Assembly (NCBI GenBank): GCA_963713615.1
Contig: CAVQMM010000001.1
Location: 2,272,001-2,336,000 of the forward strand
Source: an uncultured Chlamydiae bacterium
GTDB taxonomy: Bacteria; Chlamydiota; Chlamydiia; Chlamydiales; JAJFMA01
Length of the DNA: 64,000 nt
Direction: 5' to 3'
In this document: positions 33,229 through 34,022 of the stretch, one piece after another
Numbering within the stretch: position 1 is the stretch's first letter
How the letters are laid out: each line of letters starts with the position of its first letter
Made by a program: the position numbers and the translations under genes
Notes under the pieces: model-generated
Seen by the model: the letters and a program-made list of their open reading frames with translations, nothing else
Database searches by the model: none
What the model was told of the DNA's origin: nothing

Positions 33229-34022
33229 AAAGGACCAAAAAGACATAAAGGACATAAAGAGGTAATTGCAGAAGTCCGATTCTCCGAAGTCAATTTCCTG
33301 AAAATCGGATGCCGGTGAAGAGAGAGTCATTCCCTTCCCAGGCCCGAAGGGTCGATATTGCAACAGGCCATGGCATCGCCACATAGTCCTCAACCTAACA
33401 GGTCTTTTGAGCTTATATCTCAATGACTTAGGACTTCACAATCGTATCTCGGCGCGCAGCGCTTTGGAGTGCGGTCGCTTGCGACCGCTTTTCGTTCCTT
33501 GGGACGGCAATGCTAAACGGCATTGTATGGATTCGTCGAAGGCTGCATGTACTAACTATTTTACCCTTAGGGAATTATAGTAATGCCGTTGCACACGACC
33601 GTCGCAAGGAACCCAAAGCGGTCGCAAGCGACCGCACTCCAAAGCGCTGCGCGCCGAGATACGATTGTTAGGCTTAGGTTGAGGCCTATGTGGCATCGCC
33701 ATGGTATATGCCAAAACGGTTTTAGCAGCCTGTAGGGCTGCCATAAAGCGCATGCATAAATGGTGTTTGTAAACTGGCGTCTTGTAGCAGTCCTTCGGAC
33801 TGCGAAATCCCTTCCTGGCATATACCATGGCGATGCCATGGCCTGTTGCAATATCGACCCTTCGGGCCTGGGAAGGGAGAAAAGCCTGTCTTTCCAGACT
33901 GGATAGTGCCATACCACTTAAGCTCTCTAGAATCGCCTTCTCACAAAAAAAGGTAACCTTTTTTCCCGAGAATCGATTCTCAAGGGCTCAAATAATTTTG
34001 CAATTACCTCTTTTGGTCCTTT
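33229..34022. repeat. Single nested palindromic unit with intact module B (33382-33690)
   Basis: Same shells as the array unit; B flanked by the direct repeat TGGCATCGCCA (33371-33381, 33691-33701). Confidence 0.95.

Follow-up and report, generated by a model that had tools for sequence, protein, structure and literature searches.

Organization of repeat A and element B in the window

The genome examined (3.97 Mb in three contigs, 99.1% complete) was analysed around a window of 64,000 nucleotides, C1:2272001-2336000, which contains three copies of a short element, B, together with its host repeat, A. A solo copy of repeat A occupies positions 33259..34010 of the forward strand (432 bp after subtraction of B and one duplicated node); its ends are 12-bp inverted repeats and it contains two node hairpins in inverted orientation, each node forming a symmetric hairpin with a 7-bp stem and an asymmetric 3-base loop. 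The right node (33828-33838) is empty, and the left node harbors an intact B (33382..33690, forward strand), a 309-bp non-coding MITE. The 17-bp terminal inverted repeats of this copy lie at 33382..33398 (forward strand; one change, G6T; fitting the CAT-------AA--TAA signature of the IS231 subgroup) and at 33674..33690 (reverse strand), and are bordered by direct forward-strand copies of the 11-bp duplication TGGCATCGCCA, the left one (33371..33381) being the node of A itself and the right one occupying 33691..33701. Most of the interior (33436..33672, no strand assigned) is a REP-doublet cargo, repeat C. Folding predicted that the whole element forms one long hairpin (z=-24), and the open reading frame list contains no frame of 100 or more amino acids inside it. 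The preliminary description, which had placed a 309-bp element in the left node between direct copies of TGGCATCGCCA at 33371..33701, is accurate in all these coordinates.

A tandem array of nine A units with a period of 473 lies at 1505..8484 on the forward strand, and 17 of its 18 nodes are empty: all 16 nodes of units 1-8, as previously reported, plus the left node of unit 9. The right node of unit 9 contains a forward-strand B (5549..8302) between exact 11-bp duplications of TGGCGATGCCA at 5538-48 and 8303-13. This agrees with the earlier account in node and repeat, although not in length, since the element measures 2754 bp and encloses an IS66-family element (5796..8089, forward strand) with a transposase reading frame split into 6517-7101 and 7149-8060; B positions 97-247 are present on both sides of the nested IS66. 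The third copy (59361..61561, reverse strand) is inverted and in node position, as claimed, but it is 2201 bp long, with an IS1634-family element inside (59415..61292, forward strand, 6-bp duplication, transposase 59596-61233), and its flanks are mismatched: the 11-mers at 59350-60 and 61562-72 read GGGCATCGCCC and TGGCATCGCCA, respectively, and differ in the outer base at both ends while sharing the inner 9 bp. Consequently, 309 bp is the length of the 33382 copy only, the two longer copies being B plus a nested IS. At 61307-61323, within the 59361 copy, an 8-bp IS66 target site is doubled with one base between the two halves and no IS66 present, which may be an IS66 excision footprint.

Both the solo A repeat and the array are adjoined by GGAC/GTCC-tagged 9-bp periodic repeats. 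Some genomic A copies have direct repeats of 4-5 bp (13 bp in one case), and many have inverted flanks instead. No mover of repeat A was found in this genome; a 1416-bp A copy (C1:1137410-1138825), considered as a possible carrier of its transposase, proved to hold an apparent group II intron fragment instead, with a partial maturase-like frame as read by eye. Beside a Y1 transposase gene at C1:3243412 the node hairpin of A is found as well; this gene scores as IS200-type and does not reach the RAYT cut-off, so that the node is called a REP only by inference.

Genome-wide copies of B and the 11-bp duplication

The 17-bp end motif, with up to two mismatches allowed, gave 229 matches in the genome, corresponding to 94 pairs and 41 unpaired ends. 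When both canonical B ends were demanded, 80 elements were retained, while the 14 pairs left out belong to sister families or are B variants of symmetric or older form. Among the canonical copies, 60 are 309 bp long, five are slightly or much shorter, and 15 carry a nested IS. All but one (79/80) have A-type flanks, in every case at the node hairpin, and 69 are surrounded by an exact direct repeat, which is 11 bp long in all 69. Tabulation of the copies and their flanks, proposed in the preliminary description as a check on site-specific insertion with node duplication, thus revealed one recurrent context and not the random ones that would have spoken against it.

Read in one direction, the duplicated node alleles are represented by 53, 12, 2, 1 and 1 copies, each allele being whole on both sides of B, and in 16 of the 69 copies it is a non-modal allele that has been duplicated exactly. 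Orientation of B across the asymmetric 3-base loop is close to even (38:31 among the 69 exact copies, p=0.47). Because local alleles are copied whole and orientation is free, the 11-bp repeat is interpreted as a target-site duplication and not as an attachment core. Junctions between node and B were also seen in contigs from public sequencing runs of soil and peat, one of them possibly from the source sample, and in metagenome contig L084, which argues against an assembly artefact. In 60 related genomes the B end pattern was found once each in two, neither occurrence being B, and comparison of A plus B with three genomes of the same genus returned weak matches at most (E of 2e-8 or weaker).

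Two further, older elements have B's ends around another palindromic interior: C1:1755746-1756135 (390 bp), which occupies the same node hairpin as B, and C1:3554954-3555254 (301 bp). Together they suggest cargo exchange between the same ends. A sister MITE with an IS231-type end that differs in two bases (C1:335213-335493, 1158721-1159000, 2840976-2841259 and 3191161-3191437) both holds a C repeat and inserts into C repeats, its own cargo type thus serving as its target.

Target specificity

Of the 172 exact B-type ends in the genome, 166 come directly after a node-like 11-mer, far beyond the chance rate of 0.14% of positions, and 89 of the 286 A nodes contain a B-type end when older variants are counted in. 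Outside A, node-type 11-mers account for 49 of 410 matches and all 49 are empty; likewise, among 3587 relaxed KGG-N5-CCM sites in the genome, only one outside A has been used by a canonical B. This sole off-target copy (C1:1654684-1654988, L168) splits a gene of the 2-thiouracil-desulfurase family at GGG-N5-CCA, and its flanks form a near-duplication in which the two sides differ by a 2-base gap. The lack of insertions at matching 11-mers outside A indicates that the specificity of B needs more than the 11-mer. Recognition of a longer sequence and of hairpin shape are inseparable in this genome, as 176 of the 178 empty perfect node hairpins lie within A.

Occupancy also differs between the two arms of A. 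Outside arrays, left-arm nodes are filled in 50 of 88 cases (57%) and right-arm nodes in 22 of 95 (23%; p=4e-6, with 51 unclassified nodes excluded), the nodes compared sharing their 11-mer and being almost identical in the arms over about 40 bp outward. The type of inner arm did not account for the left-node bias (33/73 versus 35/108, p=0.09). In five tandem arrays only one of 53 nodes is filled, and the simplest reading is that the arrays grew from empty units after the burst of B.

Independence and age of the insertions

The 60 copies of 309 bp comprise 12 haplotypes with a mean difference of 0.36%. Among 16 A+B composites with a host of the main A type, host divergence is 3.1% and that of the B inserts (14 of them 309 bp long) only 0.3%, and none of the 120 host pairs is identical. 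Hosts in which B has the same orientation and allele are no more similar than the remainder (3.5% versus 3.2%), and 63 distinct combinations of flank, orientation and allele were counted among 66 B copies. The contrast between host and insert divergence indicates that most B insertions are independent and that the spread of B was recent and reached A copies already divergent from one another. The preliminary description had deduced three independent events from the window; a mobile, strongly site-preferring element with many independent insertions is well supported by these divergences and configurations, although the event at 59361, with its mismatched flanks, does not allow the reading of a clean insertion.

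The 11 copies without an exact duplication include five outer-B-outer and two inner-B-inner arrangements, which combine left-node and right-node 11-mers, two copies with one changed base, the off-target copy and the copy at 59361. The outer-B-outer and inner-B-inner forms are the products expected of recombination between a B in a left node and a B in a right node. Later B-by-B recombination of this kind would explain most of the mismatched junctions, with outer-B-outer deletions, inner-B-inner duplications and swapped flanks as its outcomes. The 59361 junction is probably recombinant or converted, either by a flank swap or by a correction that brought the outer node closer to the inverted right arm, and the structure of the unit-9 copy (B 1-247, IS66, B 97-309) is compatible with a crossover within IS66 involving copies at the two symmetric sites. 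Mismatched direct repeats in some copies of ISRm22 have likewise been ascribed to recombination between copies (PMC1525189). Two symmetric forms of B were also observed, C1:650486-650760 (275 bp, two right ends) and C1:3139116-3139458 (343 bp, two left ends), the lengths of which add up to two B lengths and each of which has an exact 11-bp duplication; they are either reciprocal recombinants or products of palindrome correction.

Candidate transposases of the IS4 family

IS231A inserts at the target consensus GGG-N5-CCC. Elements of the IS231 subgroup of the IS4 family have ends of the form CAT-------AA--TAA and generate duplications of 10-12 bp, as summarized in PMC2266710. The 17-bp end of B agrees with this signature at every specified position, and its 11-bp duplication falls within the same range. 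A metagenome scan with the B end motif gave at least 130 stretches, and among the matches listed an IS4 reading frame lies beside the end in 11 of 76 loci. These include, again among the matches listed, four autonomous IS4 elements of 1507-1669 bp with B's own end variant (L076, L085, L101 and L105). A fifth B-ended element, L169, comes from a Chlamydiota MAG; its right end is truncated. L169 was obtained from an alignment-based scan of genome contigs, which returned 76 loci, a single-protein scan of the same contigs having given no match. These five full-length IS4 elements share 16-17 of 17 end bases with B where both ends are intact, and they all lie in GGG-N5-CCC sites. L101 has an exact 11-bp duplication within a CCTAGGGC-N3-GCCCTAGG hairpin, and L076 adjoins the node allele GGGCGATGCCC, its two flanks differing at two of 11 bases.

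The two partner transposases compared with the IS4 model NF033592 (cut-off 115 bits) both passed it (L076, 195 bits; L101, 184 bits), and the YREK motif is present in all four that were aligned. In a FastTree phylogeny the five partners fall into a single clade (support 100), nested in a larger group that also contains Bacillus IS4 transposases and is set apart from the other chlamydial IS4 types (support 97). Identity of the partners to named IS4 proteins of Bacillus and Clostridium is only 25-31%, so that their placement in the IS231 subgroup rests on the ends, the duplication length and this tree, which includes no named IS231A sequence. Other genomes also contain related IS4 elements or MITEs, with ends resembling those of B, in or beside palindromic repeats (L017:1164-2909, L015:1-1919 and L060:2201-2595).

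Protein and alignment searches for a cognate transposase in the present genome were empty. NF033592 gave ten matches, none reaching the cut-off, and tblastn with seven close proteins gave only hits at E>0.2; the alignment search recovered an element of a same-genus genome (G003), used as positive control, at E=2.5e-97. Of the 31 matches to PF01609, the 13 inspected, at least one per sequence type, have ends other than those of B, and none of the 14 unpaired B-type ends examined (out of 41) leads to a transposase. The helper IS of B would accordingly have been lost or reside in unassembled DNA.

Mode of transposition and alternative explanations

Taken together, the sequence comparisons make it very probable that B is a MITE mobilised in trans by a DDE transposase of the IS4 family, which would generate the 11-bp duplication by cutting the two strands in a staggered manner. 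The enzyme would bind both 17-bp ends and excise B; the two strands of the symmetric node would then be attacked 11 bp apart, and repair would double the node. A recent burst of B would have been followed by loss of the helper IS, unless this lies in unassembled DNA. The ends, the duplication and the partner elements of other genomes all agree with an IS4/IS231-type MITE, which is the likely assignment; a partner transposase was not found in the same genome, nor is one required of a MITE.

The preliminary description had compared B to a mobile cassette with an attachment site. In such a model, a tyrosine recombinase or an IS110-type enzyme would excise the element as a circle and recombine it at the node, which would serve as attachment core. 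Use of one site by 79 of 80 copies is what such a cassette would display, an IS110 family of this genome aims at another A hairpin in nine of nine copies, and at 59361 only the inner 9 bp are common to the two sides. A donor-carried core would, however, give hybrid junctions at variant nodes, whereas the 16 variant alleles were copied whole; an asymmetric core would fix the orientation, which is free; B has IS231-type inverted ends that it shares with DDE elements; one copy is off-target in a gene; and the genome contains no head-to-tail B junctions. Contigs of the public runs contain no circle-type joint of B, although contigs cannot show absence and no run contained half of the stretch. On allele copying and free orientation, the cassette reading is not retained and is regarded as highly improbable. 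Integron cassettes and other attachment-site elements also use one palindromic site repeatedly, and B differs from them in its local allele copied on both sides, its two orientations and its transposon ends.

It is also unlikely, albeit slightly less so, that a few entries of B into A were followed by multiplication of the A+B composites, the site specificity then being mostly hitch-hiking. Repeat A looks mobile itself, with its terminal inverted repeats and 120 paired ends, and the excess of filled left nodes could stem from left-filled founders. Composites multiplied in this manner are nevertheless at odds with A parts 3.1% apart around B parts only 0.3% apart, with the lack of identical hosts, with hosts of the same orientation and allele being no closer, and with the near-complete distinctness of the flank configurations. 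The least credible explanation is that B is a REPIN spread through its palindromic interior by the REP-associated tyrosine transposase of the genome, its IS231-like ends being passive relics. The interior is indeed a REP doublet, the arm motif of which (367 occurrences in the genome) flanks a gene at C1:3256780 that scores above the RAYT cut-off (83.7 versus 80 bits), and the IS4 helper was not found in the genome; but the boundaries and the 11-bp duplication coincide exactly with the IS231-type ends and not with the REP ends, and the 390- and 301-bp relatives keep these ends around a different interior, the former in the same node. To our knowledge, HUH enzymes make no duplications of the 11-bp target kind.

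Comparison with known elements

The IS231 and MIC231 elements resemble B in end signature, 10-12 bp duplication and target specificity, and transposase-less IS231 derivatives are mobilised in trans (PMC2266710, PMC6199540). The MIC231 cassettes of the Bacillus cereus group are about 0.7-3 kb long and carry passenger genes (PMC6199540), whereas B is a 309-bp non-coding element with a REP doublet, is confined to one repeat hairpin (79/80) and has no passenger reading frame of the kind that defines such a cassette. ISRm22 (IS4 family, IS4Sa subgroup) has nearly all of its copies at the symmetry axis of a REP hairpin, and ISPsy8, ISPa11 and ISPpu9/10 are further REP-targeting ISs (PMC1525189). ISRm22 and B are alike in using a fixed point of a repeated extragenic hairpin and in mismatched repeats read as recombination, but ISRm22 is autonomous, with 9-10 copies and a reported 6-bp repeat, while B is non-autonomous, with 80 copies, an 11-bp duplication and a cargo targeted by further ISs. 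The MITEs Nezha and Chunjie similarly combine terminal inverted repeats shared with an IS, a target duplication and a stable hairpin, and the partner IS of Nezha was likewise located in a different species alone; strict confinement to a single repeat, as in B, is not described for them in the accessible portion of that report (PMC3184786).

On these sequence features, B likely works as an IS231-type non-autonomous element with ISRm22-like REP targeting. Published precedents exist both for IS4 elements that target REPs and for MIC231 cassettes, and B is a very clean case of behaviour known from other bacteria, one that does not demonstrate new recombination chemistry; literature searches (open-access papers, main texts) found no publication on the element itself. 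The 69 exact duplications, target variants, decoys and candidate transposases make up a natural collection of insertions of unusual clarity for an enzyme of the IS231 type, through which target choice, including the distinction between sequence and hairpin shape, becomes testable. The distribution of B further illustrates that elements which target repeats and are stacked on one another can proliferate in a compact genome at little gene cost, one copy in 80 breaking a gene.

Nested and neighbouring repeat-targeting elements

Counted by eye, the ends of three other elements adjoin sites of B's interior repeat with high frequency: IS66 (34/36), IS1634 (13/13) and the sister MITE (24/27). More speculatively, and with considerable doubt, B could be a REP doublet in which the gain of IS231-type ends brought about a change from single-strand (RAYT) to DDE mobility; such an element would enter the hairpins of a second REP family by means of a transposase reading context well beyond the 11-bp site, and each copy would become a new landing pad for IS66 or IS1634 (15 of 80 already carry one), forming an ordered parasite nest of four tiers.

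In the window, an IS110-family element (62185-63948, transposase 62448-63644) lies in the outer-arm hairpin of an A copy, the position used by all nine genomic copies of this family, which is thus a second REP-targeting element on repeat A. Two solo C-type palindromes lack B's ends: one at 45674-45909, about 91-94% like the B interior, and one at 25399-25624, preceded by a decayed B-like left end. Elsewhere in the genome, a further MITE, about 160 bp long, with 226 end matches and flanks that vary, occurs at C1:383852-384742, 2974252-2974746 and many other sites, and sits in frame inside transposase reading frames. A third Y1 transposase gene (C1:3873041-3873382) has its own REP-like palindrome family on its flanks. 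Other features of the window include a glucose-6-phosphate dehydrogenase gene extending over two overlapping reading frames (41237-42770; frameshift or sequence error) and an AT-rich 50-bp tandem repeat of about four copies (48902-49095) upstream of a Fic-domain gene.
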